From Pseudomonadota bacterium (GTDB lineage Bacteria; UBA10199; 2-02-FULL-44-16; JBDRGF01), in the NCBI GenBank assembly GCA_043818055.1, contig JBDRGF010000033.1:52363-116362 (forward strand): 64,000 nt of DNA, in the 5' to 3' direction. The position numbers and the translations under genes were made by a program. This document shows, piece after piece, positions 1 to 17,298 of this stretch; positions within the stretch are counted from its first letter, which is position 1, and every line of letters starts with the position of its first letter. The notes under the pieces are model-generated. The model had not been told where the DNA came from. It searched no databases and worked only from the letters and a program-made list of their open reading frames with translations.

Positions 1-900
1 AAATTCACACTCCTTGCACAATGCAGGCTTTACAGTTTCACGCAGTAATGCAAATTGCTGCCTCTCTCCAATTCGATCAAGAATCTGATTTTCAAGAATA
101 CTACCAGCTATCCAATCCCTTCCGACCAAATAGGTTGACGGCGTGATATCGCCGGTTGGCAAAATTCTTAAACTTGAAACACCAGACATATCATCAGAAA
201 TTCGAGATTGTTTAAAAATACTTGAAAAGAGAGGATCTGAAAGTACAGCAACTTTGTAACGTTTCATTATCCATGAAAGAGCTTTATAGACTGTCTTTGA
301 AGAAGGGGGAGATAACCGATTATTCGTAGGACGAAATAGATTAATGCGCACCATGGCATTGTGCTGTGATGCTACATCAAAAATCCCTTTTAAATTTTCT
401 TTGGTGAGGGTATCCTCAATTCCAATCATTACTATCGTGCTTTTAATATTAGCTTGTGTGCAAAAATCTAAAGTTCCAATCGCCCACTCAAAAGCGCTTT
501 CATGTCCTCTTATTTTATTGTGTTTGTTTGGATTTGAGTAGTCAAGAGATACATCAATTTCATTTATACATCTGCTCACTAGATTTTGATAGAATGAGTC
601 ATTTTTCACGACTTCAAACAAATAACCATTTGTTGTAAGTGCCTGTAATATATTAGGAAAATACTTACGCGCATAATCAATTAAATCGAACCAAATTGGA
701 GTTAGAGCATTTTCTCCTGTGCCGTAGTTTATTGAATCAATATAATTGTGATTATTAGAAATAAAATTTCGTAATGTATCTAAATTAAGAGTATCCTTAC
801 CTTCTCGCGCATCAATGCTGTAACAAAATGAACATCTCATGTTACATGCTTTTGTGATTCCCCATCCAATTTGCCATTTAGTTCCCAACTGACAATTCAT
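1..900 (-). CDS. Radical SAM/SPASM-domain protein, 3' end runs off the window (absent from ORF track)
   Basis: Manual translation from ATG at 900: MNCQLGTKWQIGWGITKACNMRCSFCYS (CxxxCxxC), then GTGEN, LTTNG, DVSLD, RILPTGDITPSTY, ending in ...PALCKECEF at the window edge (start of SPASM-like Cys motif). The frame is open for 300 codons. Confidence 0.88.
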   Translation of the reverse strand, partial: MNCQLGTKWQIGWGITKACNMRCSFCYSIDAREGKDTLNLDTLRNFISNNHNYIDSINYGTGENALTPIWFDLIDYARKYFPNILQALTTNGYLFEVVKNDSFYQNLVSRCINEIDVSLDYSNPNKHNKIRGHESAFEWAIGTLDFCTQANIKSTIVMIGIEDTLTKENLKGIFDVASQHNAMVRINLFRPTNNRLSPPSSKTVYKALSWIMKRYKVAVLSDPLFSSIFKQSRISDDMSGVSSLRILPTGDITPSTYLVGRDWIAGSILENQILDRIGERQQFALLRETVKPALCKECEF

Positions 901-957
901 AATTACTTACCCCAAATATTATTTTGTAACAGATAAATCAATCAACCTTAAACACTC

Positions 958-1083
958 GCAAAAATTATGCCAAAATGGTAAAAAACATAACCATTTGAAA
1001 TTATACTTGTTTTTTTTAAAAATCGTTAATAACAATTAATTATTTGTCCAAAAAATCGGACTCGAGAGTCCAGAAAATCAGAC
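958..1083 (-). promoter_or_regulatory. Sigma-54 promoter with IHF-like site and tandem enhancer-like boxes, driving the radical SAM gene
   Basis: Minus strand TGGCATAATTTTTGC (958-972) fits GG-N10-GC. IHF-like TTTCAAATGGTTA at ~988-1000. Boxes GTCC-N8-GGAC (1046-1061) and GTCC-N8-AGAC (1068-1083) are 22 bp apart. Confidence 0.72.
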
Positions 1084-1137
1084 ACTCCAGATCGAACGGT
1101 TATATCAAAGGATGGATTTTAATAAAAAATTAAACAA

Positions 1138-2646
1138 TTATATTTTCTTCCATTCTGTCTTTTGAGAAGTATCTCTAATCTCAATTCCTAAGTCTCGTAA
1201 CATGTTGCGAATTCGATCCGCTTGTTTGAAGTTCTTTGTTTTGCGAGCTTCATTTCTCTCTGAAATGAGATTTTCAATTTTTCGGATGAAATTAGCATCC
1301 ACCTCTTCGACTCCATAGTCAAAAATAACGCCTAGAATGGAATCAAAAACTTTTAAAACCTGTAAACAAGTTTTAGCTTGTTCTTTTGAAAGCATACCAA
1401 CTGAATTTATTTTTGTCACAAAATTAAAAACGTACGCCAAACTCCCTGATATATTTAAATTATCATTTAAAGAATCGACAAACCCAGTTTGTGCTTCACA
1501 GCAGATCTTAGAAATATTAACCTCAACATCCTCATGGATCGAACCCTTCTCGTATGCAAGCAACTTGTCCCTCAATTCCACCAAACGGTTAATGTTGCTT
1601 TTCGCTTGGCCTAGCGAAGTTAATGTAAAATTCATAGTTTGAGCATAATGCGTTGTCATGAGTGCCCACCTGATTGCAAGAGGATGATGTCCCATATTGA
1701 TTAGATCTCGAATTGTATAAAAATTACCCTTTGACTTACTCATCTTTTCGCCATCCACAAGCAAGAACTTCGCGTGTATCCAGTAATTGACGAAAGGTGC
1801 ACCATTAGCACACATGGATTGAGCTATTTCGCATTCATGATGCGGAAACTTATTATCCTCTCCACCAGTATGAATATCGATCGTATCGCCTAGCAATTCC
1901 TTTATCATAGCCGAACATTCTATGTGCCAGCCTGGAAAACCGACACCCAACTCAGTCTCCCACTTCATAATATGCGTGTCGTCCTTCTTCCAAAGTGCGA
2001 AATCATAAGGATTTCTTTTAATGGCGGACTTAATTTCATCTATGCGCCCGCCAGCTCCCGTCTTTAAAGATTCCATGGTATTATTTGACAAACGACCGTA
2101 TTCCTTAAATGAAGAAATATCAAAATAATATGCGCCATCAGATGCCTTATACGCATAGCCCTTGTCGATAAGAGCTTTAATCATCTTAACCATTGTATCG
2201 ATATGTTCAGTCGCTCTTGGAAAACTCATCGGCTTTTTAAGATTGAGGGCATTAAAATCTTCCTTGAATGCTTTGATATAAAAGTCAGCAACATCCCATG
2301 GAGACTTAAAATCAAGATCCTTATATCCCTCCTTGCGACCAGCTTTTTTCGATTTCAGCTGATTTACAGCGAGAGTCATTTTATCCTCTCCGCCACCTTC
2401 AGGGAAATCATCGTTAGTCATGTGACCTACATCGGTTATATTCATAACTTGCTGCACTTCATATCCGTTTTGCTCCAAAACTCTCCGAAGCAAATCAGCC
2501 ATAAGAAAGGTTCTAAAATTACCGATGTGAGCATAGTCATAGACTGTAGGACCACAATTATACATCTTAACAATAGGATGACTGATAGCTCTGAATGGAG
2601 TTAGGCTGTTTGTGAAACTATTATATAATGTCAGTTCCTTAGTCAT
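1138..2646 (-). CDS. cysS: Cysteinyl-tRNA synthetase
   Basis: CGPTVYDYAHIGN, PGWHIECSAM, DIHTGGEDNKFPHHECE, KMSKS motifs and an intact C-terminal anticodon-binding helix (ERNEARKTKNFKQADRIR). Confidence 0.97.
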   Translation of the reverse strand: MTKELTLYNSFTNSLTPFRAISHPIVKMYNCGPTVYDYAHIGNFRTFLMADLLRRVLEQNGYEVQQVMNITDVGHMTNDDFPEGGGEDKMTLAVNQLKSKKAGRKEGYKDLDFKSPWDVADFYIKAFKEDFNALNLKKPMSFPRATEHIDTMVKMIKALIDKGYAYKASDGAYYFDISSFKEYGRLSNNTMESLKTGAGGRIDEIKSAIKRNPYDFALWKKDDTHIMKWETELGVGFPGWHIECSAMIKELLGDTIDIHTGGEDNKFPHHECEIAQSMCANGAPFVNYWIHAKFLLVDGEKMSKSKGNFYTIRDLINMGHHPLAIRWALMTTHYAQTMNFTLTSLGQAKSNINRLVELRDKLLAYEKGSIHEDVEVNISKICCEAQTGFVDSLNDNLNISGSLAYVFNFVTKINSVGMLSKEQAKTCLQVLKVFDSILGVIFDYGVEEVDANFIRKIENLISERNEARKTKNFKQADRIRNMLRDLGIEIRDTSQKTEWKKI

Positions 2647-2783
2647 AGTGTTTTAATAACTATAATGAAGTCCATGTGATTGTCTATATCAAAAATTTGT
2701 TTTTTATATGGTGGCTTGACAGAAAATAGAGAAACTGTCACTAATAAGCGCATATCCTTATTGGAAAGGGTTTTTAAAAAACT

Positions 2784-3962
2784 ATGAATTTTATATACAC
2801 ATTTTTGAAACCAGCTCAAAGCAATTTTGAATTGTTGAAGAAATGGAGTACCATTTCGATTTACAATCCAGAAAATCCCGTAGTAGTTAAAATCACAGTT
2901 CCTTTAGGCGAAGTCTTTCAGAAGAATCAATTTGTTTTAATTGGGAATTCTCTCACAGGAGAGTATAAAAAAGCGATTAGTTCAGCTGCTATCAAGGGAT
3001 ACGAACTGTTACGAAACTCAGCTGAACAAGCGATCAAGCTTAAAACTCACACAGAAGTTTCGGATCCACACGGACAAATTGTAAAAACCTTTGATGAAGC
3101 CGCCAAACTCATTATGGAGCAATTGACACTTTTAGAAAAAACGGAATCCACAGATGCATTTCAAATTATAATTCCGCTTCAATTAGATACTTCTATTCAA
3201 TTTAAAAACATGACAAGTCTACAGATCAAAAAAATGCTAGAGGCTGGCTGGAAAAGTGTAATTGTGCCAAGTGGTGCAATTGAACAACATGGCCCCCACT
3301 TGCCAATGAACACTGATATCTATTTAGCAACGGTGCTTTCAAATTTAATAGCTCAGGAATTAGGAATGATGTTAGTCTCATATGGAATTGCTCCCGGATG
3401 CTCTGACAATCATCTTCCTTTTGCCGGCACGCTATCGTTGGACCAAGATACATTCAAATCTGTACTAAAGAGGATGACTCGCAATTTGATCTCTCATGGT
3501 TTCAAAGAAATCATACACTTTCCTTTCCATGGAGGTAATTTTAATCCAACTCAAGAAGCAATTAGAGAGCTGAGAGCCGAATTTGAAACACAAAAAATCA
3601 AAATTATAGGCCCAAAACAAGGCAGTATGGACAAGAAAGACTTTTTTAATACCCTAGAATCTGCTTTGCATATACACTTTCCTGACAAACCTGATGACTG
3701 GCACGCAGGTTGTATTGAAACATCGATGATGCTATATGCTGATCCTTTTCTTGTAAGAAAGGAATTGGTCGAAGTTGGTTACACTGGAAAACCAATCCCG
3801 TCTGAAATTGTGAACCGAGAAGGTCTTAATAAGTATACGGCTAACGGCATTTGGGGGGATCCAGTTGGATATAGCATAGAATTAGGTGCTTTAATCTTTC
3901 GAAAACTGATTGCCAGAGCTATCCAACATATAGAATCTGAAAGAAACAAAAACGTTACCTAG
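2784..3962 (+). CDS. Creatininase/MftE-family amidohydrolase with ~135-aa unknown N-terminal domain
   Basis: GAIEQHGPHLPMNTD, GCSDNHLPFAGT, FHGGN, WHAGCIETS and NGIWGDP motifs. Confidence 0.88.
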   Translation: MNFIYTFLKPAQSNFELLKKWSTISIYNPENPVVVKITVPLGEVFQKNQFVLIGNSLTGEYKKAISSAAIKGYELLRNSAEQAIKLKTHTEVSDPHGQIVKTFDEAAKLIMEQLTLLEKTESTDAFQIIIPLQLDTSIQFKNMTSLQIKKMLEAGWKSVIVPSGAIEQHGPHLPMNTDIYLATVLSNLIAQELGMMLVSYGIAPGCSDNHLPFAGTLSLDQDTFKSVLKRMTRNLISHGFKEIIHFPFHGGNFNPTQEAIRELRAEFETQKIKIIGPKQGSMDKKDFFNTLESALHIHFPDKPDDWHAGCIETSMMLYADPFLVRKELVEVGYTGKPIPSEIVNREGLNKYTANGIWGDPVGYSIELGALIFRKLIARAIQHIESERNKNVT

Positions 3963-4008
3963 TTACAAGCTATAACTTTTTTTTAAATTTAGCTAAGTTG
4001 AATATATC

Positions 4009-5277
4009 ATGATAAAGAAACTGTTATCGATTCCCACCTTATATAAAAAAGCTCCAAAGGAAATATACATTCTCGCTTTGTCTAGAATAATTAACAGCTC
4101 AGGCAATTTTGTTTATCCCTTTCTAGCCCTCTTTATTACACAAAAATTACAGCTATCTGCGAAAACAGCGGGAACGGCTGTTCTTCTTGTTTCAATTGCT
4201 TCGATTCTTGGCACATTAGTTGGTGGGAAACTAACGGATCATAGTCGGCTTGGTCGGAAAAAAATTATGATTATCGCACAATTCTTTTGTGCCATAAACT
4301 TAATTCTGTGTACTCAGTTCGCCCATTCATACATAATTTTATTCTTTATTTTTATTTCACATTTTTTCCATGGAATCTTTAGCCCAGCAAATAAAGCAAT
4401 GGCAATAGACTTGACGGATAAAAACAATAGGTATCCTTCATTCTCCTTAATTTATTTGGGACATAATATAGGCTGTTCTATAGGACCTCTTTTAGCTGGT
4501 TTTCTATTTAAAAATTATATCATGTGGTTATTTATTGGAGACGCACTAACTACACTTATTTCAGCTTTAATCATTGCAATATTTCTACATGAAACGCGTC
4601 CATCAAACGAGAAGATAGAGTCGAGCTACACAAAACAATCACAGGAACGAGCCGAACAAGGCAATGTCTTTGTCAGTTTATTTAAAAGACCCAACCTCTT
4701 GTTTTTTGTTGTATTACTTATCATTCTACAAATTGTTTATTCTCAGCGACATTTTTCACTTCCATTGCAGTTAAATCTCATTTATGGAAATACTGAAGGT
4801 CCAATTCTTTTTGGAACTATGATGACAATAAATTCATTGTTTGTGATCGCTTTTACTACCATAATCACTTCATTCACAAACAAGTTCAATCCTCTTATAA
4901 ATGAATCTATCGCTAGCATATTTTATGCTCTGGGATTCGGAATGATCATTTTCACCCACTCTATTCCGTTCTTCATAATTTCTACATCTCTATGGACAAT
5001 TGGTGAAATTCTATATTCCACCAATTCTTCTGTTTATATCGCTAACCACACTCCTATTTCACATAGAGGAAGATTTAATGCGATTATACCCTTAGCAATG
5101 TATGTTGGATATGGACTTGGTCCATTATTAATGGGAAAAGTTATCGAATTACATAATCTCCAATATGTATGGATATCAACTTTTCTCCTAGCATCATTCG
5201 CAGCTTTTGCATTATGGACATTGCACATCTTAGAAAAAACAAAACTGCAAACTGTGTTTAATAATGTTTCCAATTGA
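4009..5277 (+). CDS. MFS transporter (drug/metabolite exporter-like)
   Basis: About 12 hydrophobic segments and motif A-like GGKLTDHSRLGRKK. Confidence 0.92.
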   Translation: MIKKLLSIPTLYKKAPKEIYILALSRIINSSGNFVYPFLALFITQKLQLSAKTAGTAVLLVSIASILGTLVGGKLTDHSRLGRKKIMIIAQFFCAINLILCTQFAHSYIILFFIFISHFFHGIFSPANKAMAIDLTDKNNRYPSFSLIYLGHNIGCSIGPLLAGFLFKNYIMWLFIGDALTTLISALIIAIFLHETRPSNEKIESSYTKQSQERAEQGNVFVSLFKRPNLLFFVVLLIILQIVYSQRHFSLPLQLNLIYGNTEGPILFGTMMTINSLFVIAFTTIITSFTNKFNPLINESIASIFYALGFGMIIFTHSIPFFIISTSLWTIGEILYSTNSSVYIANHTPISHRGRFNAIIPLAMYVGYGLGPLLMGKVIELHNLQYVWISTFLLASFAAFALWTLHILEKTKLQTVFNNVSN

Positions 5278-5320
5278 GAATGCAATTTTGCGATAATCTT
5301 TTAGAAAGAGTGAATTTTGT

Positions 5321-6517
5321 ATGAAAGAAAATATACTAATTTTGAATAACGCCAGATATGAGCACTACTATAAGAATAAAAAACCAATTATTGACTATAA
5401 TCGTTACAACGTTTTTTTTATAACAAAAAAAGAATACGCTGCTGAAATTCCAGATAATGATTACTCAGAACTTCACTCCATCAATATGAGTGACAGCGAC
5501 GCTGTATTCGAATTAGCAAGAAATATTCATTTAAGGTATTTTATCAATCGTGTCATTGCACTATCCGAAAGTAACATTTTGGATGCAGCACGAATTAGAG
5601 AATTTTGTGGGTGTAAAGGAATGCCATTTAACCAAGTGCTAATATTAAGAGATAAATGTTTAATGAAAGAATACCTCAGTGGTAAAGGAATTAACGTCCC
5701 TGCATTTAAAAAATTATACTCAACTCAGAATGCCATAGAGTTTTACCAATTATATGGTAGAGTTGTGATCAAACCTGCGTTAGGAATGGGATCAAAGAAT
5801 ACCTACATTATTGATACAGAGACTAAGTTCAACTTAGCGTTAAAATGTATTAATAATAGCATTCTTGATTACGAAATTGAGGAATTTGTTGATGGAGATA
5901 TGTATCATTGCGATTCCATCATAGTGGATGGACATGTTAAACTATGTAGCGTTAGTAAATATCTTGATTCCACATGCGGTTATTTAGAGAGTCAACCACT
6001 TGCATCAGTTATGGAAGATGACGAAAACATCTGCTCTAGGTTACAGACTTTTAACAGCATGATTCTTAAAGCTTTCGGCATCAAAAATGATGTTACACAT
6101 CTTGAGGTCTTCTATAAGGATTCTAATATCGTATTTTGTGAAATTGCAATAAGAACAGGAGGGGGAGGAATTATTGATTCAGTTGAGCAGAAATATTCAA
6201 TCAATCTCATGGAAACCCATCTCAAACTCCAACTTTCACAATGTGAAAAATTACAACTATGTAGCAGAGATCTTTACAGTGGATTTGTTATGTTTTATGC
6301 GAAACCAGGGATAGTAGTCAATATTACACCGGCCGATAAATTTAATCAGGAATGGATATCTAAATTTAAAGTCTACATCAAAAAAGGCGATCGAGTCATT
6401 TTACCAAAATATAATGGAAAACCAGCCGCCATAGTAATCATCGTTGGAAAGACGAAAGACGATTTGATCAATAAAGTTGAATGGGTAAAAAGCAATTTCA
6501 GAATTAGCTACATTTAA
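5321..6517 (+). CDS. ATP-grasp ligase (L-amino-acid ligase-like)
   Basis: RDKCLMK, VVIKPALGMGS, IEEFVDG, THLEVF and FCEIAIRTGGG motifs. Confidence 0.85.
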   Translation: MKENILILNNARYEHYYKNKKPIIDYNRYNVFFITKKEYAAEIPDNDYSELHSINMSDSDAVFELARNIHLRYFINRVIALSESNILDAARIREFCGCKGMPFNQVLILRDKCLMKEYLSGKGINVPAFKKLYSTQNAIEFYQLYGRVVIKPALGMGSKNTYIIDTETKFNLALKCINNSILDYEIEEFVDGDMYHCDSIIVDGHVKLCSVSKYLDSTCGYLESQPLASVMEDDENICSRLQTFNSMILKAFGIKNDVTHLEVFYKDSNIVFCEIAIRTGGGGIIDSVEQKYSINLMETHLKLQLSQCEKLQLCSRDLYSGFVMFYAKPGIVVNITPADKFNQEWISKFKVYIKKGDRVILPKYNGKPAAIVIIVGKTKDDLINKVEWVKSNFRISYI

Positions 6518-7807: not shown

Positions 7808-10800
7808 TCAAAAATTTGGTATCAATCTTAGCTCTTCGACAGCTTTATCATCTATTATACTTCCAAACCTATCTATCGGCTCGACAAGGGCTTCTAAAAT
7901 TGTAAGTGGGTCTTCAACCTTTCCGATCGAAACTTTTTCTTTGTAAAGTTTTGTTAAATTATATTGAAGCTCCTTGAGAAATTTTGACAGTTCATCTCCA
8001 TTTGAATAAATGGCGCTCTGTGGTTTTAATGGAGATGATATTTTCCATTCACTATCGATAGCCTCCTGAAACAATTTTGTGAACTTATCAATCATTGCCA
8101 TTAGTTCATCAACAGCCGGGTTGTTTTGTCTATATTTCGACAGTATGTGTTTATATTTTAACAAATCTTTTGTGATCGATTCTCTCAATGATCTCAAAGG
8201 TAACTGGCCGGAGGTCCTTCTGATCATATCCCTTTTATTGATTAAACCCTGAACGACCCATTTAATCTCCCTTGGTATTTGATTTCTATAATACGATTCA
8301 ATTGAATTAATGATGTGAAAGGTCGAAACATTGGATATAGTCAATGGGGTGATTTTTTGATCATTCGTCTCAGCTTCAAGTTGGGTTCTTCTCTTGTTCA
8401 GTTCATTTTGATATTGTCCTCCCATGACATAAAGAAGGTTAACGGCCAAATACCTATCTTTTGTTGGGGTTCTACCGTCGCTGGCTATTCTGAAAAGCAA
8501 CTCGAAAAACTCATTATTATATTCCAACGTGCCAAACTCATTAATATAATGTGTAAACCAATGTAAAATAGCAAAAAGCTCATCATGATCTCTAGATGGA
8601 ATAATCATTAAATCGGAGTTTTTTAATAAGTTGATTACATATTTAAACCGCTCAACTTCTGGCAGACGCCATATGAGTTTTGAAAATTGATTTAAAATTC
8701 TCATTCTTGAATTACGTGATCGCTCCGCCATGTGAGAATAGTTAGAAATAGCCATTCCTAAATTACCAGATTGTTCCTCGTTGAATGTTTCTATGATTTT
8801 ATCCAGATGACCACGAAGATATTCCATATTGTCAATATTTGATTCGACGCCAAATTTAAATGGAAGGCCAGCATTATTTCCAACTTTTGACAGTGTGGCG
8901 GGATCCTTAAAATGAGTATATGGATCAGCGCAACTTTTTGAAAATAGCTTTGAAATCAATGTTTTTGCTTGTCCTGTCTTGTCATCATAAGAAATAGTGT
9001 TGAGAAAAAGAAAAAATAAAAGATGGGTTGAATTTGCGATATCTAGAATTTCATTCAAGGGTTCGTTTGATCTCTCGCAAAAGTTGGATATCTGTTCGAT
9101 TGCTTCAGAAATCAAACCATCCCTGTCAGGATACGAATAACCATTCAACACGGCGAATATTGCAAGTCGCAACCGTTGTTCTTTGTCCTTTGTTGCGGAA
9201 ATAAGTTTTTGAAATAGCATTTCGTCGATTAGCAGATGAGGGTGACAGAAGGCCTGTTGCCATATAGTGCCAGATTCATATCCATATGTTGATTCATATA
9301 TAATTCTGTTGAAAGTTTGGAAATCAAGGCTTTCAGACTCTAAATGATTTCCTATAATAATTTTGGACAACTTCTTTTTGATTGCGATTTGTACTTTTTC
9401 AGAAAACTTTGAGAGCATCATTAGTAAATCAGGTTGGTTTAAGATACCAACCCAAATATCTCGACTACCTGATACATCAAGTACATATTTTTCAAACTCC
9501 TTATCGTAGCCCAATTGAAGGGCAAGGACACCTAGTTTATGGATGTTTTCGTCACTGTATAGTAGTTCTAAAAGTTGGCTAAAATCTTCTTGAGCAATAA
9601 ACAAACCTTCGTCAAAGTAGTTGCCTAATATGTGATCAAAATACTTTTGTAGTGTAAGTCTATCTGCTGATCTAATGGCCTGGGCAATGATATTGTTTTT
9701 CAATGCGCTAGATCTTTTTGCTGATTGAGATAGCAAGTCATCTTCCTTACGTATGTATGCAAATAAATGATAACTTCCGACCGCCTCCCCACCATGGTCT
9801 TCGACAATTTTTTTAACAAGGGACGTGTCAAACCCTCCCTCGAATAGGAGTTCCATAAAACCGGGTGCGGTATAGTTAGAGGCATTTGAAGGTTGCAATA
9901 GATCTCTGGCTATTTCAGAAAGCAGGTCGTCGATGATTTTTTCACAATTTGTGATTTTGAGCTCTTGCAAAACATGATCGCATTTCATCATTTTAAGAAG
10001 CAGTATTGAATGTCCTGTTAATACGTTTGAACATATCAAATTTTTTAACGATTCTGCTATAACTGTACGTGATGCTGGATAATGCAAGATGTAATCTGAG
10101 ATATTTGACAACCAATATCGGAGCTTTATTTGAGTCTCATCTCTGAGATGATCATTAAACCTATCCCTCCAAATTAATTTTGAACTTAAATCGTTGTCTT
10201 TATTAAATAGTCTAAAAAGTTCATGCCATTTTTTAAAGTTAGTCCCAATCGATTTCTGCTTGGATTATCTTGATTATCTCTTCATCGCTAGGGTCTATCA
10301 GTTCAGACAATGAACTAATTGTGTCTATATCTAGCTTGTTTTTAAGCGAATTGAGCTTTTTAATAATTTCTTGATTGCTTGACACTATCTTCCAAGCAGC
10401 TCTGTAATAAACTTTAGTATCATCGAGCCTTTTGAGAAAATCCCGTCCAGACAGACCTTTTAAATAATCAATAAATATTAAAATAATATCTTCGTCTGGA
10501 CACAAGAACGCGGCAGCGGGATTATTTTGTATAATGATTCTTATTAGATGTTTTACTGCTTCTTTGACCTTCGAGTGTCCTGATTTGTATAGAATTGCTA
10601 GCTCGCTTAAATATTCTTCGAGGCCATAATAAAGCGAAGAAAGAAATTTAATATCTTCGTTCTTCTTTCGATTTCTATTAAACAGTCCTCTTATATCTGT
10701 TGGAGAGTGCTCTTCAGCACCAAAGGCGGTTTCAATCGAAAAGGGATATATGCTTCTTCTGTCATCTGTCAGCAGAAAATTCAAAGTTGTTGCATGCGTA

Positions 10801-12464
10801 GTTGCACTTGTGACCTTTGGTTCGGATACACTTACTCCACCTGAAAATATTACAGAAAAACCAAGGTGTGCAAATATCTCCCTGGTGACTATTGCAAAAC
10901 CATCACATTTAACCTTGTATTTTAATCTCCTCGTCTTTTTACATATTTTCGAGCAGTGTTTATGAATAAATTCTAAGAGAATGACTTGAGAATGCTCTCT
11001 TTCTCCTAGAAATTCTCCATATCTTTCAACAAAATTATCTGCGTAATCTCTATTGTAGGCCAAGTCAAAATCATATTCGTACCAAGAGCCAACATGTTCA
11101 ATCACCTCTTCTAGACATTCTCCTAATTGCAATGATCCTCTCAAAATTCTTGAATTCATGGCTTCTATAAATTTTCTCGTTGGTTCAGGCCACTCATCTA
11201 ATTTTGAATCCGGGCGCGTCAATGACATCAGCTCTGGAGGATCACCCCAAAAAGCTCCCCAATAATTGAAGCCAGATGCCTCTCGCGGCACTTCGAGAAT
11301 TTTAAATGAATAAAAAAGGTCTCTTTTCTCTGTCATCTCTGGAATTTCAATGAATGTTAGATGCTGGTATTTTGTCGGTCTGAAGTCCCAGCCTTGCAAA
11401 CCTTCTATCCTTATCGTTTCAGGTTCTATTTGAGCGGCGAATGGCTGTGGCAACAGAATGCGCCTCTTTTCGCCCGCTTCAATTTGGATTTTTACGGTTA
11501 CCCTTTTAGGTTCTACTCTAAACAATGACCACAATTCATCCGGCGCATTGGGAAGCGAGGGGGATAATGCATTGTGAATCTCCTCGATTTTTTTGCATGC
11601 TGCCTCGAATTCCTCTTCTGTGCAGGAATCAGGTTTTTCAAGGGGAGAGCTATGAAAAAATTGGTGATTATTGTATTCATTGCCTGAACCCAAAAATTCG
11701 AATCCCTCTACTATTGTAAAAAAATGCATGTCTTGCTGGCTTAAACTAAAAGGTGCCGATTCTGGAGATTCAACTTGTTGAGCATTATCTAAGCTCTGAC
11801 CTTCGGTCACTCCGGCAGACAATTGTTCTATGCCGATTTCAGGCATTTCAGTTTCGAGGATTTGCATTGTCTCTTCCTGCTTTGTTTGTTGATTTATTAT
11901 TTTATCAAACAGAAGAGGGACTGCGTCTGAGATTGGATTGTGTAAAATTGAATTCAGCTTTTTGATTCTGGAGTACAATAAAGTCTGATCTTGATGTGGC
12001 AGGCTCAAAAACAAATTAATTAAATCTTCAAAACTACTTTTTGTATTGTGAGAATGGCTGACCCCCAAATTAAATTTATTCCCCTCTCGCCAAAATCGGA
12101 GAGAGATTTCCCCTTCCGGCAATTCAATTGAAGATGTTAACGACTCATCTGGAGATATTTGGTTAAGATCTTCGAATAAACTTTCTAAGTCACTCGCACA
12201 AAAAATACTGACAATTTTTTCCCTTAAATTCATCCCTTCCCAGATTTCCGAAACAGATTCAAATTCACAACTATGTTGAAGTATTGAAAGAGAACTTTGT
12301 CTTTTTGAAACTAACCGTGCAGGGATGGTTAATGTTGCAGAAGGTTCTTTTAGAGAATATGAGGATAATGATGAATATGCAGCTGGTTTAGCAATTCCCC
12401 CTTCAAAAGAGGGCAACTGTGGAACAATCATCGCATATGTTGTTGTATGGAGGCATTTGACCAT
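7808..12464 (-). pseudogene. Large orphan gene with transglutaminase-like Cys/His motif, split by a +1 frameshift near 10245 (ORFs 10239-12464 and 7808-10111)
   Basis: The downstream ORF frame stays open from 10111 up through the upstream stop at 10239-10241. Removing one G from GAT TGG GAC TAA gives D-W-T-N-F-K-K-W-H-E... and a continuous ~1551-aa protein. KCDGFA...THA resembles the transglutaminase-like core. Confidence 0.65.
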
Positions 12465-12747: not shown

Positions 12748-14466
12748 ATGATATCCAAAGAAATCGAAAATAAAATCAACGAATTAGCAAAAAAATATCC
12801 AAAAAAAGAGTCGGCGCTCATGCCGGCACTCGATCTCGTACAACGCAGCAATAAAAACCTCCTATCACATGAGGATATCAAAGAGACCGCACGCGTTGTC
12901 GGGGTGACTGAAAGCAAAGCTTTTGGCGTCGCAACTTATTACACGATGTATAACACGGAAAAAGTCGGGAAATTTAATCTACAGATCGACACGAATATCC
13001 CGGGTTTCTTGACCGGTGCGAACGAAATACTCGAACACCTCAGGAAAAAACTCTCAATCGATGCCGGCGAGACCACAAAGGATGGTATGTTCACCCTCTC
13101 AATCGTTGAAGATCTTGGTTCATGCGGCACCTGCCCTGTGATGCAGGTCAACGACACATATTACGAAAATCTGACAATCGAAAAGGTGGACAAGATCATA
13201 GATGAGCTGAAAAAGGACAAAACGCCTGAACCGGACACGACAGCGAACTGGGGATCCGAGTGCAAGATACTCCTAAAAAACATGGGAGAGAAAAATTCGA
13301 CGAGCATCGAAACATACAAGAATAGCGGTGGCTACACAGCCCTTGCCAAAGCCCGCAAGATGAAACCTGCCGACATCGTTCAGGTGGTGAAGGAATCGAT
13401 GATCAGAGGTCGCGGCGGTGCAGGTTTCGCGGCCGGGGTCAAGTGGGGATTTTTACCCAAGGATGATTCCCGTCCAATCTACCTTGTCTGCAATGCCGAT
13501 GAAGGGGAGCCGGGAACATTCAAGGATCGCCAGATCATGCAATATGATCCACACCTTCTGATAGAGGGAATCGCGATCACCGCCTACGCTATAGGATCGA
13601 AAAAGGCATTCATCTATATAAGAGGTGAGTTCCGCTGGATCGCCGACATACTCGAAACGGCCATTGAACGTGCTAAGGCAGAGGGGATGCTCGGGGATCT
13701 GGACATCGTAGTTCATAAAGGGGCAGGATCATACGTCTGCGGCGAAGAGACAGCGCTGATCGAATCTATAGAGGGCAAGCGCGGCAATCCGAGAAACAAG
13801 CCGCCATTTCCTGCGAATATCGGCCTCTACGATTGTCCCACTATCGTAAATAATGTCGAGACGCTTGCGTGCATTCCATACATCATCGAAAATGGCGCAG
13901 AGGCTTTTAAAAAGATCGGAAATGCAAAGAACTCAGGGCCGAAGCTCTACGGCGTAAGCGGCCATGTAGAAAAACCTGGTGTATATGAATATCCGCTTGG
14001 AACACCGCTTGAAAAGATTCTCAAAGCAGCAGGTGGCGTGAAGGGAAAATTAAAAGCTGTAATAGTCGGAGGATTATCGGTCCCGATATTGCGCGCCGAT
14101 GAGGTCAAGGATCTCAAGATGGATTTTGACGACTGCTTAGCGCATGGCACTATGCTCGGTTCCGGCGGTATCATGGTGATCAACGATACCATATCGATTC
14201 CTGAGTTAGCGCTGAGAACTATCAAATTCTACGCTCACGAATCGTGTGGCCAGTGCGTCCCGTGTCGCGATGGCAGTTCTGTGATAAAGAATATATTGAA
14301 AAGGCTGATTGCGGGCCAAGCAAAAAAAGAGGAGATCGACCAGATTTTATCCATGTGTAAGACGATAAAGGGTCTCACACTCTGCCCAACCGGCGACGCG
14401 TTCGCAATGCCTATAGAGGCTATGATTGAGAAATTTAGAGAAGAGTTTGAGGGATTAATAAAATAA
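12748..14466 (+). CDS. Fused NuoE-NuoF-like NADH/FMN-binding subunit of a soluble NAD+-dependent formate dehydrogenase
   Basis: NuoE-like N-terminus (GVATYYTMY), then RGRGGAGF, NADEGEPGTFKDR, YVCGEETALIESIEG, NNVET and ESCGQCVPCR...LC. No C-terminal ferredoxin domain. Confidence 0.92.
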   Translation: MISKEIENKINELAKKYPKKESALMPALDLVQRSNKNLLSHEDIKETARVVGVTESKAFGVATYYTMYNTEKVGKFNLQIDTNIPGFLTGANEILEHLRKKLSIDAGETTKDGMFTLSIVEDLGSCGTCPVMQVNDTYYENLTIEKVDKIIDELKKDKTPEPDTTANWGSECKILLKNMGEKNSTSIETYKNSGGYTALAKARKMKPADIVQVVKESMIRGRGGAGFAAGVKWGFLPKDDSRPIYLVCNADEGEPGTFKDRQIMQYDPHLLIEGIAITAYAIGSKKAFIYIRGEFRWIADILETAIERAKAEGMLGDLDIVVHKGAGSYVCGEETALIESIEGKRGNPRNKPPFPANIGLYDCPTIVNNVETLACIPYIIENGAEAFKKIGNAKNSGPKLYGVSGHVEKPGVYEYPLGTPLEKILKAAGGVKGKLKAVIVGGLSVPILRADEVKDLKMDFDDCLAHGTMLGSGGIMVINDTISIPELALRTIKFYAHESCGQCVPCRDGSSVIKNILKRLIAGQAKKEEIDQILSMCKTIKGLTLCPTGDAFAMPIEAMIEKFREEFEGLIK

Positions 14467-14537
14467 ATGCTGTGCGCTATGGGCTTTGCGCCATGCGTTT
14501 TAAAAGCGCATAGCGCACGACACAAAACGCATAGCAG
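14467..14537. repeat. Intergenic imperfect palindrome built from short GCGCATA/TATGCGC-type units (copy 1)
   Basis: First 38 nt match 37326-37363 at 34/38 positions. Confidence 0.7.
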
Positions 14538-14559
14538 TTCATTTTTAAGGAGGAAATAC

Positions 14560-17298
14560 ATGAGTAGCAAAATCAACATCGATGGAAGGAGTTGCAACTT
14601 TGAGGGGGCGAAAACCATCCTTGAGGTCGCACGCGACAATCACATCTACATCCCGAGCTTGTGCTACCACAAAAAGACAGGGCCGGCTAGCATGTGTCGC
14701 GTCTGCGTTGTAGAGGTGGATGGCATGAGAGGGCTTCAGACTGCTTGTTCGGTGGAGGCCAAAGATGGCATGACGGTCAAAACCGACACACCAAAGGTAA
14801 TAGAAGCGAGAAAACTCGTAGTAAATCTACTCCTCGTAAATGGCCATCACAACTGTCTATCCTGTGAACAGAATGGCGAATGTGAGCTTCAGGAGGCTGC
14901 ATATAAGCTTGGAATAGAAGAGCCGTCATTCGTTGTCGACGAGGGGACAAAGACAAAGGATGAGTCGAGTGAGATGATCATCCGCGACGGCAACAGATGC
15001 ATACAGTGTGGCCGTTGCATCAAGGGATGCAATACAACTGTCGTCAACGAAGTGCTCGATTTCGGCTACCGCGCCGATTCGACAAAGGTGATCTGCGATG
15101 ATGACCTCGCGATGGGAGATTCTTCCTGTGTCCAGTGCGGCGAGTGTTCGCAGCTCTGTCCGGTTGGCGCGATCACAGACAAGAAAGCCCATGGAAAGGG
15201 TCGTCCCTGGGAATTAAAAAAGGTCGATACGGTTTGCACATATTGTGGAGTTGGCTGTCAGCTGACGCTGCATGTCGATGAATGGAAAAATGAGATCGTG
15301 AAAGTAACAGGTGTCGATGGGGCACCTCCAAATGACGGCATGCTCTGCGTGAAGGGGCGTTACGGTTATGAGTTTGTAAACAGCCCAGAAAGGCTTACCA
15401 CCCCGTTGATCAGAAACAGCAAAGGTGAGTTTGAAAATGCGACTTGGGAAGAGGCTATAAACTTCATCGCAAAAAAGTTAAATGATATTAAGCAAAAACA
15501 TGGTTCGAACAGCATAACGGGCCTTGCTTCCGCCAAGGTGACAAATGAAGAGAACTTCCTATTTCAGAAGTTCATGAGAAAGGAGGTGGGCACAAATAAC
15601 GTTGATCATTGTGCCCGGCTCTGACACTCCGCCACGGTGGCCGGTCTGGCTACCTCACTCGGTTCAGGCGCTATGACAAACGACATCGCAGGTATCAAGA
15701 ATGCCGATGTCATTCTAATAACGGGTTCTGATACATCAGCAGCTCATCCAGTTATCGCTGCCCGCATCAAGCAGGCTGTGCGATTTGGAAAAACAAAGCT
15801 CATCGTCATCGATCCGAAAGAGATCAAGATGGCCGAATACGCAACCATCTATGCAAGGCAGAGATGCGGCACGGATGTCGCAGTATTAAACGGTATCATG
15901 CATGTGATGATCAAGAACGGTTGGTACGACAAGGCATACGTCGAAGAGCGATGCGAAGGATTTGAAGAGCTGAAAAAAGAGGTCGAGAACTATCCTCCGG
16001 AAAAGGTTGAAAAGATATCCGGCGTCCCAGCAAAGCAGATAGAAGAGATAGCAGAACTTTTTGGCAAGGCCGAAACCGCGAGCCTCTTCTATGCGATGGG
16101 AATCACACAGCATACGACCGGCGTCGATAACGTCTGGTCAACTGCCAATCTGCAGATGCTCTGCGGCAACCTTGGAAAGGATGGCGGAGGCGTCAATCCA
16201 CTCAGAGGCCAATCAAACGTACAGGGTGCTTGCGATATGGGTGGGCTTCCGAATGTCTTTCCGGGATATCAAAAAGTTATCGATGAAAATGCAGTAGCAA
16301 AATTTGAAAAGGCCTGGAACTGCAAGCTTTCGAATAAAGTCGGACTAACTGTGACAGAGATGCTTGGTGGCGCTCACGATGGAAAGGTGAAGGCGATCTA
16401 TTGCATGGGAGAAAATCCGATGCTCTCAGATCCTGATCTCACGCACGCAAAAGAGGCGCTCGAAAAATTAGAGCTGCTAGTCGTTCAGGATCTCTTCATT
16501 ACAGAGACTGCAGAACTTGCTCATGTAATCTTGCCGGCTGCAACTTTTGCCGAAAAAGAGGGGCATTACACTAATACAGAGCGAAGGGTGCAGCGTTTGA
16601 GAAAAGCCGTCAACTCTCCTGGAGAAACAAAACAGGATTGGATGATCATACAGGATATCGCAAACGCGATGGGTGGCGAATGGAAGTATCAATCGGTAAA
16701 GGATATAACCGATGAAGTTTGTCAGCTCACTCCACAATATGGTGGCATCACATGGGAGAGAACGGAGAAGATCAGTTTGCAATGGCCATGCCCGACAACG
16801 GAACATCCGGGCACACCATACCTTCATAAAGGGAAATTTGCACGCGGCAAGGGACTTATGAAGGCTATACCATTCAAAGAGCCGGCTGAGCTGCCTGATG
16901 AAGAGTATCCACTTGTTATGACGACAGGCCGAGTACTGGAACATTTTCACACGGGAACCATGACAAGAAAGACTCAAGGGCTAAATAACTTAGCAGGCCC
17001 GATGGTCATGATCTCTGTCGAAGATGCCGAAAGCCTGGGAATTAAAAACAGCGAACTCGTGAAAGTCACCACGCGTCGTGGCGAAATTCACACACCTGCT
17101 TTTGTAACAAGAAGAATCGGCAAGGGAACGATTTACATCCCGTTCCATTATAAGGAAGCTGCGGCTAATTTGTTGACCAATCCGGTCGTAGATCCGGTGG
17201 CCAAGATTCCAGAATACAAGGCCTGTTCTGCACGCGTCGAAAAATTAAATGGAGAAATAGCTGATTCACCTTCGTGTAGAATCGGAAGGGTTAAATAG
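14560..17298 (+). CDS. fdhA: Selenocysteine-containing formate dehydrogenase alpha subunit (Mo/W-bisPGD), cytoplasmic, ~912 aa
   Basis: The two track ORFs are in frame across TGA 15622-15624: VDHCARL-U-HSATVAGL. N-terminal [2Fe-2S], HxxCxxCxxxxxC and 2x[4Fe-4S] motifs, CTYCGVGC, PLRGQSNVQGACDMG. No Tat signal. RBS AGGAGG before ATG 14560. Confidence 0.95.
15625..15660 (+). promoter_or_regulatory. Bacterial SECIS element
   Basis: Hairpin GGTGGCC-GGTCT-GGCTACC (15636-15654) begins 11 nt after the UGA and resembles the fdhF-type SECIS. Confidence 0.88.

Follow-up and report, generated by a model that had tools for sequence, protein, structure and literature searches.

The closest described parallels to the locus considered here are pathways in which a protein resembling an aminoacyl-tRNA synthetase (aaRS) takes part in biosynthesis. 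According to passages of PMC9092360 and PMC9032320, the albomycin warhead SB-217452 is made with an amide-forming aaRS-like enzyme, AbmF, which is fed by an extra intact aaRS, AbmK, together with radical S-adenosylmethionine (rSAM) enzymes and a Trojan-horse carrier. Passages of PMC12945691 describe ascamycin AcmF, a truncated aaRS paralog in which the ATP-binding residues are absent, alongside an extra canonical aaRS (AcmD) and a hydrolase (AcmE), as well as SbzA of the SB-203207 pathway, a class Ia synthetase fold that serves as an aminoacyl transferase. We analysed a stretch of 64 000 nucleotides from an uncultured Pseudomonadota bacterium (the window, C33:52363-116362 in genome G000, its position 1 being C33:52363), the first 6517 positions of which carry five genes, about half of a ten-gene, 14.4-kb island flanked by focA and selD. 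The island encodes a protein derived from valyl-tRNA synthetase (ValRS), with altered activation motifs, and a second, foreign cysteinyl-tRNA synthetase (CysRS); by analogy, the best reading of this content is the logic of an aaRS-like transferase plus a spare aaRS, not mycofactocin or PEARL chemistry.

The likeness to albomycin lies in the kinds of genes. The island differs from that pathway in having four rSAM enzymes, including a B12 enzyme, ATP-grasp ligases in place of a nonribosomal-peptide-synthetase siderophore and a Val-fold/Cys pair rather than Ser, and in lacking the pyridoxal-phosphate transaldolase, the kinase and the carbamoyltransferase. Compared with the ascamycin system, the fold is that of a class I ValRS instead of a class II AlaRS, the amino-acid types of paralog and spare synthetase do not match, and the sulfamate genes are absent. 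SbzA keeps the IleRS architecture with its editing domain and doubles as a resistance gene, whereas the island protein lacks both the editing and the KMSKS motifs.

Gene content of the island

A sequence-only reading of the window had named five genes in divergent arrangement; all five open reading frames (ORFs) are present within positions 1-6517, their families are supported by Pfam and NCBIfam, and the divergent gap measures 137 nt. That reading also expected the AT-rich block to continue off the left edge, and it does so for a further 7.9 kb that carries more rSAM genes, the ValRS-like protein and a first ATP-grasp ligase. All ten island ORFs are intact. The features, with coordinates on C33 or in the window, are as follows.

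C33:44497-45345 (L001:4498-5346), minus strand: orphan of 282 aa at the island edge, no family match
C33:45439-46638, minus strand: ATP-grasp no. 1, left of the window
C33:46635-48620, minus strand: ValRS-derived protein, 661 aa, left of the window
C33:48601-50025, minus strand: B12-rSAM, left of the window
C33:50042-51154, minus strand: rSAM/SPASM F10, left of the window
C33:51147-52145, minus strand: rSAM F8, left of the window
Window 1-900, minus strand: 5′ part (300 codons) of rSAM F0; whole gene C33:52156-53262, 368 aa
Window 1138-2646, minus strand: CysRS (cysS), 502 aa (Pfam, NCBIfam)
Window 2647-2783, no strand: divergent intergenic region, 137 nt, between cysS and the creatininase-family gene
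Window 2784-3962, plus strand: creatininase-family amidohydrolase, 392 aa (Pfam, NCBIfam)
Window 4009-5277, plus strand: major facilitator superfamily (MFS) transporter, 422 aa (Pfam, NCBIfam)
Window 5321-6517, plus strand: ATP-grasp no. 2, 398 aa (Pfam; ATP-grasp_4 and LAL_C2)

Judged from its sequence, the ValRS-like protein is the key gene product of the island and a derivative of ValRS. Its Atlas model matches ValRS with a TM-score of 0.79 across residues 3-652, and elements of the amino-acid pocket are retained (TPPPY, GFDCH, WPITRSR of the WxIxRxR type, and VLDT). The activation motifs are changed, HxGH (HIGH) to HLHH, RxQGHD to RIHRLA and KMSKS to xFKERV; the TTRPE and GTG editing motifs are missing and the C-terminus is shortened. 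The same retained elements and the same changes, the shortened C-terminus included, are found in P0122, the one close relative recovered by a word search (38% identity). When 1.84 billion representatives were searched with a profile, only these two family members ranked before ordinary ValRS-type proteins; the nine further matches that were opened or aligned, of 148 listed, all have KMSKS-type motifs. Another 92 genomes of the phylum gave no match, and a metagenome scan gave eight weak matches, of which the three opened (L083-L085) were ordinary ValRSs. An AlphaFold model computed from the two sequences reached a pLDDT of 33 and was set aside. Full-length class Ia synthetases of the Val/Ile/Leu type are encoded separately in the host, and the degenerate paralog is additional to the housekeeping enzyme.

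A resistance role for this protein is conceivable by analogy, since a histidine at position 3 of HIGH, which abolishes IleRS1 activity, confers mupirocin resistance in IleRS2 (in passages of bioRxiv 2023.01.31.526100); the loss of KMSKS on top of HLHH would favour a transferase over a resistance role. The aaRS-centred idea of the sequence-only reading gains strength from this paralog, which is encoded just outside the window. ValRS misactivates cysteine. The only related points in passages of PMC5370406 are homocysteine editing and Val-Cys formation.

Two CysRS copies are present in the genome, 32% identical to one another: that of the island and one on C125, whose gene follows carD-ispD-ispF (gene names from reading of translations). 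The island copy passes TIGR00435 (463 bits, cut-off 340) and has canonical HIGN, KMSKS and Zn-ligand motifs and an anticodon domain; its catalytic motifs being canonical, resistance is not readable from its sequence. CysRS matches were found in 57 of 60 relatives, 56 of which have a single copy. In a quick maximum-likelihood tree the C125 enzyme clusters with those of the relatives (SH-aLRT 100), and the island enzyme clusters with ten proteins at 51-61% identity, outside the host-lineage clade; no donor was identified for it. The gene count and tree proposed in the sequence-only reading thus point to an extra, intact copy, besides the housekeeping one, of foreign and non-vertical origin.

In the creatininase-family protein the PF02633 match is limited to residues 142-382, and the metal motifs of the family are present (EQHGPH..D, HGGN and HAG..E). 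Its N-terminal extension (about 140 open codons, window 2784-3209, plus strand) gave no usable Atlas match (TM-score at most 0.37) and no homolog, and plasmid-borne creatininase homologs lack it. The MFS protein is likely, from its sequence, to be an exporter. Both ATP-grasp proteins are L-amino-acid-ligase-like, with best PDB matches to 4wd3 (presumably RizA), 3vot and BacD, so that the resemblance to dipeptide ligases suggested earlier holds; no. 1 also matches BacD, and no. 2 combines ATP-grasp_4 and LAL_C2 domains. An ATP-grasp protein with LAL_C2 beside an MFS transporter recalls bacilysin BacD and the rhizocticin-type ligases, but the score lies far below the BacD cut-off (57 bits, cut-off 850) and the island has no anticapsin or phosphonate genes. 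Cassettes of an ATP-grasp pair with an MFS gene also occur by themselves on plasmids. In passages of PMC11641026, the ATP-grasp enzymes NikS (nikkomycin) and PolG (polyoxin) join amino acids to nucleosides.

The GC content is 0.351 at window positions 1-6517, compared with 0.483 in the formate dehydrogenase (fdh) genes (12748-17295) and 0.433 in the genome, and is 0.357 over the 14.4-kb block, which is low throughout without interruption. GC at third codon positions places the five window genes at the 3rd-18th percentile among 1446 genome ORFs, and by codon usage all ten genes are closer to the island set than to the host set. The claimed contrast with the fdh genes therefore stands for composition but not for position, since the direct right neighbour is selD; the left end adjoins the formate/nitrite transporter gene focA. 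From F0 through F8, F10, B12-rSAM and the ValRS-like gene to ATP-grasp no. 1 the arrangement is that of one six-gene operon, because the intergenic gaps are only -20 to +16 nt; neither an exporter gene nor a resistance gene belongs to this operon. One 10/12 sigma-70-like site in the divergent region points toward cysS. Promoter and terminator counts across the island were not above those of shuffled sequence, and no direct repeats of at least 9 nt were found at the tested island ends. The 282-aa edge orphan, which has an R-x5-H motif like that of HEPN nucleases, is likely to be a passenger rather than a pathway gene.

Near-exact matches to the island and its flanks come from contigs of three studies, with depth in 30, 29 and 29 of 30 bins; run X1, among those matching, may be the source sample. 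One contig of run X2 joins the transporter gene to the 282-aa orphan; no contig covers the whole island. Fragments of the rSAM genes, of the MFS gene and of ATP-grasp no. 2 occur in run X6 at 0-4% divergence and a depth of about 3, a weak hint that both island halves coexist in a second strain; no contig joins the halves, and island parts left uncovered in this run carry no evidential weight. In RNA run X4 low-depth contigs cover island and host genes alike, which is compatible with DNA carry-over and is not evidence of expression.

The rSAM enzymes and loci related to F0

The predicted model of F0 (pLDDT 90) indicates a SPASM-type rSAM fold. The earlier rSAM/SPASM label is thus borne out by the model and not by Pfam, which gives no SPASM match; four invariant C-terminal Cys residues are all that the sequence offers, in a C-terminus of the HDGYLPT family. 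At E ≤ 1e-20 there are 572 relatives of F0, of which the best 120, F0 itself excluded, share 41-52% identity with it, and the family stays below every NCBIfam cut-off shown. No F0 ortholog was found in 60 host relatives (best E 7e-9). The best NCBIfam match of the B12-rSAM is PhpK, at 100 bits for a cut-off of 600. PADLOC searches for known defence systems or prokaryotic viperins gave partial rSAM-core matches of 31-83 bits and no full-length strong match, viral scans with F0 and F10 gave weak rSAM matches only, F10 was not found in plasmids, and it is present in one of 401 Lachnospiraceae genomes, that of locus L065 described below.

The best 80 of 180 F0 relatives gave 75 loci, 73 of them with a called F0; neighbours were counted if they lay on the same strand and no more than 6 kb away, from ORFs called only at 70 aa or more, with family labels assigned from representatives of the same loci. 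Among the 73 loci, the neighbours comprise B12-rSAM (34), purine-nucleoside or methylthioadenosine phosphorylase-like proteins (PNP/MTAP; 34), pyrophosphatases (32), deaminases (16), kinases resembling thymidylate or cytidylate kinase (TMK/CMK; 8), F10 (7), F8 (6), an aaRS or aaRS-like gene (5) and glycosyltransferases (4). When 70 full-length F0 proteins were collapsed at 58% identity into 20 lineages, a nucleotide-type neighbour (PNP/MTAP, TMK/CMK-like, deaminase or NUDIX) occurred in 12 lineages and a TMK/CMK-like kinase in eight, one of these (L038) by P-loop motif only; the host genome, as a baseline, has three TMK-family matches in 2.9 Mb.

The closest architecture is that of L065 (Lachnospiraceae), a low-GC island with F0, F8 and F10 in the same order, at 41, 36 and 45% identity, respectively, to their island counterparts; its F8 and F10 are sister to those of the island (SH-aLRT 89 and 96). 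The rSAM trio is followed by a degenerate GlnRS-like gene, a TMK-like kinase, which gives L065 a nucleotide kinase in common with albomycin (AbmG, in the passages cited above), and an extra GlnRS, and another GlnRS-type gene lies elsewhere. The GlnRS-like protein is 35% identical to the nearby full GlnRS, across the catalytic domain alone; paralog and spare aaRS are here of the same amino-acid type. L065:9980-17617 is in itself a compact candidate for a GlnRS-directed compound. In a single further lineage (L025, L028 and L039) F10, F0 and B12-rSAM stand with a 420-aa truncated AlaRS-like gene, additional to a longer AlaRS. On plasmids, too, distant F0 relatives belong to small cassettes; of three that were opened, two have a pyrophosphatase and an exporter.

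Two other groups of F0 loci deserve mention in their own right. A 42-locus lineage of gut Bacilli and Clostridia (L014-L078) carries LysR, F0, an MTAP-like gene, two unknowns, a B12-rSAM whose best PDB match is OxsB (E 3e-12), a mini-pyrophosphatase and a UvrD-like helicase; it has the look of a nucleoside-tailoring or conflict system not yet studied. The Wukongibacter cluster L047:10010-20981 holds F0, a second rSAM, two aminotransferases, a pantoate-beta-alanine-ligase-like gene and a short-chain dehydrogenase/reductase, as well as a B12-rSAM, a TMK-like kinase and a beta-lactamase-like gene.

A candidate Trojan-horse pathway and its rivals

The reading that we favour, with confidence evenly balanced between belief and doubt, is that the ten genes act in a single pathway, its product a Trojan horse that resembles an aminoacyl-nucleoside with a peptide cap, in the manner of albomycin and ascamycin. 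The product is likely to be an exported, amino-acid-capped antibiotic that would target a tRNA synthetase. Gene content, coupling of the left operon, the lost motifs of the ValRS-like protein and the foreign nature of the second CysRS can be read from the sequence; every chemical step we infer. The rSAM trio of L065 with its aaRS-like gene and extra aaRS, the nucleotide-type neighbours of F0 relatives and the precedents AbmF/AbmK, AcmF/AcmD and NikS/PolG also speak for this reading. A scaffold of nucleoside or sugar type would be reshaped by the four rSAM enzymes, and the ValRS-like protein is predicted to transfer an amino acid onto it. The intact CysRS may provide activated cysteine, as Cys-AMP or Cys-tRNA, and/or serve as a resistant target copy, as with AbmK and AcmD. 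The creatininase-family protein could strip an N-acyl group from an intermediate, the two ATP-grasp ligases would attach a short peptide cap and the MFS protein would export the product. Once the product is taken up, cleavage by peptidases would free a mimic of an aminoacyl-adenylate, and this mimic would block a synthetase, in the simplest case CysRS. In its boldest form, which we consider rather unlikely, the island would make the first natural CysRS-directed Trojan-horse antibiotic, from an editing-less ValRS-derived transferase switched to cysteine from the foreign CysRS, a scaffold made by four rSAM enzymes whose families are uncharacterised and a two-ligase uptake peptide.

Several observations weigh against a single nucleoside pathway, and the main doubts are the mismatch between ValRS fold and CysRS, the unproven link between the island halves and the lack of a nucleotide enzyme in the island, which has neither nucleotide kinase nor phosphorylase. 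The paralog is ValRS-derived and the spare synthetase is a CysRS, unlike AcmF/AcmD and L065, in which the amino-acid types agree. On the same strand, cysS is 237 nt upstream of F0, with a terminator-like hairpin in the gap, and codon usage fails to set the island apart from other low-GC genes of the genome. At E ≤ 1e-5, neither CysRS nor the creatininase, the MFS protein or either ATP-grasp protein has a homolog at any of the 75 F0 loci, and in 46 of these genomes matches to the creatininase (six genomes, 26-38%) and the ATP-grasps (two genomes, 22-28%) are weak, with no demonstrated linkage to F0. Of the two findings that the sequence-only reading had named as refuting it, one was observed, as the five-gene set was not found elsewhere in the loci of F0 relatives, and the other was not, as cysS is neither the sole nor a vertical copy. 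What does recur is the core of rSAM genes, accompanied by an aaRS-like gene. The neighbourhood statistics are dominated by one gut lineage, to which 42 of 70 loci belong, and the MTAP and deaminase neighbours could merely clear 5′-deoxyadenosine. The top Foldseek matches of the F0 model (BlsE, SuiB and anSME, at 13-16% identity) do not help, since BlsE comes first by E-value but has a lower TM-score than SuiB (0.60 versus 0.70), so that the match to BlsE is not diagnostic and the substrate cannot be read from the fold. A single clade of aaRS-linked F10 proteins was tried and rejected (two changes, a value as low being reached in 174 of 500 shuffles).

The strongest competitor, less probable than a single pathway though a real possibility, is that two modules lie side by side: a complete left operon drawing on host Val-tRNA through its ValRS-like transferase, and cysS and the creatininase-MFS-ATP-grasp genes acquired separately at an integration hot spot. 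The absence of the right-hand genes beside F0 relatives, the mobility of ATP-grasp-pair and MFS cassettes on plasmids, the further AT-rich orphans around selD and the hairpin between cysS and F0 all fit this arrangement; yet the left operon would then be without exporter or resistance gene, the 14.4 kb of low-GC DNA show no break, at L065 this rSAM trio stands beside an intact extra aaRS, and slightly diverged pieces of both halves occur in X6, without a linking contig. If the island is one pathway, its warhead might instead be a non-proteinogenic amino acid of the bacilysin or rhizocticin type, which the rSAM enzymes would build and two L-amino-acid ligases would cap, no nucleoside being involved. 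We regard this as quite unlikely: the ligase matches, including that of ATP-grasp no. 1 to BacD, the missing nucleotide enzymes and the PhpK match of the B12-rSAM agree with it, but F0 relatives adjoin kinases, phosphorylases and glycosyltransferases, the characterised aaRS-like transferases compared here acylate nucleoside or sulfonamide scaffolds, and a phosphoenolpyruvate mutase or similar gene is absent from the island.

Improbable is a role outside antibiotic production, as a decaying mosaic or in the tailoring of nucleoside-diphosphate sugars or a cell-surface polymer; the ValRS-like gene would then be a relic. Glycosyltransferases do accompany F0 at the four loci mentioned, and the genome has other rSAM-rich glycosylation islands; the island itself contains no glycosyltransferase, all of its ORFs are intact, and the remodelled motifs shared at 38% identity by two ValRS-like proteins argue for selection and against a relic. 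A ribosomally synthesized and post-translationally modified peptide (RiPP), made by a mycofactocin-like or PEARL pathway with Cys-tRNA acting on a precursor peptide, is among the chemistries raised in the sequence-only reading, and is highly improbable because the defining genes of these pathways are lacking. Three SPASM-type rSAM enzymes, one beside a creatininase-family protein, and a CysRS in the cluster recall such systems, and a CysRS (TglF) is part of the 3-thiaglutamate cluster. MftC and MftE are the top NCBIfam matches of F0 and the creatininase, but both are sub-threshold (78 bits against 265, and 115 against 172), and MftA- or MftB-like genes are missing. No precursor peptide, RiPP recognition element (RRE) or PEARL gene was found in the island, and its gaps hold no convincing small ORF; PqqD/RRE proteins are absent from the island, with two elsewhere in the genome, and no small-ORF family appears among the F0 neighbours, at the ORF length given above. 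No island gene is PEARL-like, and a search of the 93.6%-complete genome, run without a positive control, found no PF04738 match.

Surroundings and implications

Between selD and the fdh genes lie two further AT-rich orphan ORFs on the minus strand (window 7808-10111 and 10239-12464; 767 and 741 aa), with no Pfam, NCBIfam or PADLOC match. The formate dehydrogenase large-subunit gene (window 14467-17295, plus strand), near which selD, selA and selB are found, is interrupted by an in-frame TGA (15622-15624; surroundings C-A-R-L-stop-H-S-A-T) that is likely to encode selenocysteine. Three other low-GC rSAM-rich regions of G000, named from reading of translations, are a RiPP-like cluster with PqqD (C3:83-4815), a cluster with a B12-rSAM and efflux-like genes (C75:11235-25251) and a glycosylation island (C159:31273-52207).

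From its gene content the island looks, as the sequence-only reading proposed, like an undescribed biosynthetic cluster, and no paper on this gene combination was found in the open-access literature. The logic of an aaRS paralog with a spare aaRS is known; what is new is the two-member ValRS-derived paralog family, its pairing with a CysRS, the three unnamed rSAM families and the two ligases. In their main text, neither a review from 2021 on natural aaRS inhibitors of the Trojan-horse type (PMC8323819) nor one from 2026 on aminoacyl-tRNA-dependent enzymes (PMC12945691) contains the words 'CysRS' or 'cysteinyl'. Clusters with synthetase paralogs indicate a compound and its target together. If the island makes a CysRS inhibitor, this would add a new class of antibacterial target; a ValRS-fold enzyme acting on the amino acid of another synthetase, if true, would be new enzymology. 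Beyond this island, the F0 family of rSAM enzymes flags many unstudied cassettes.

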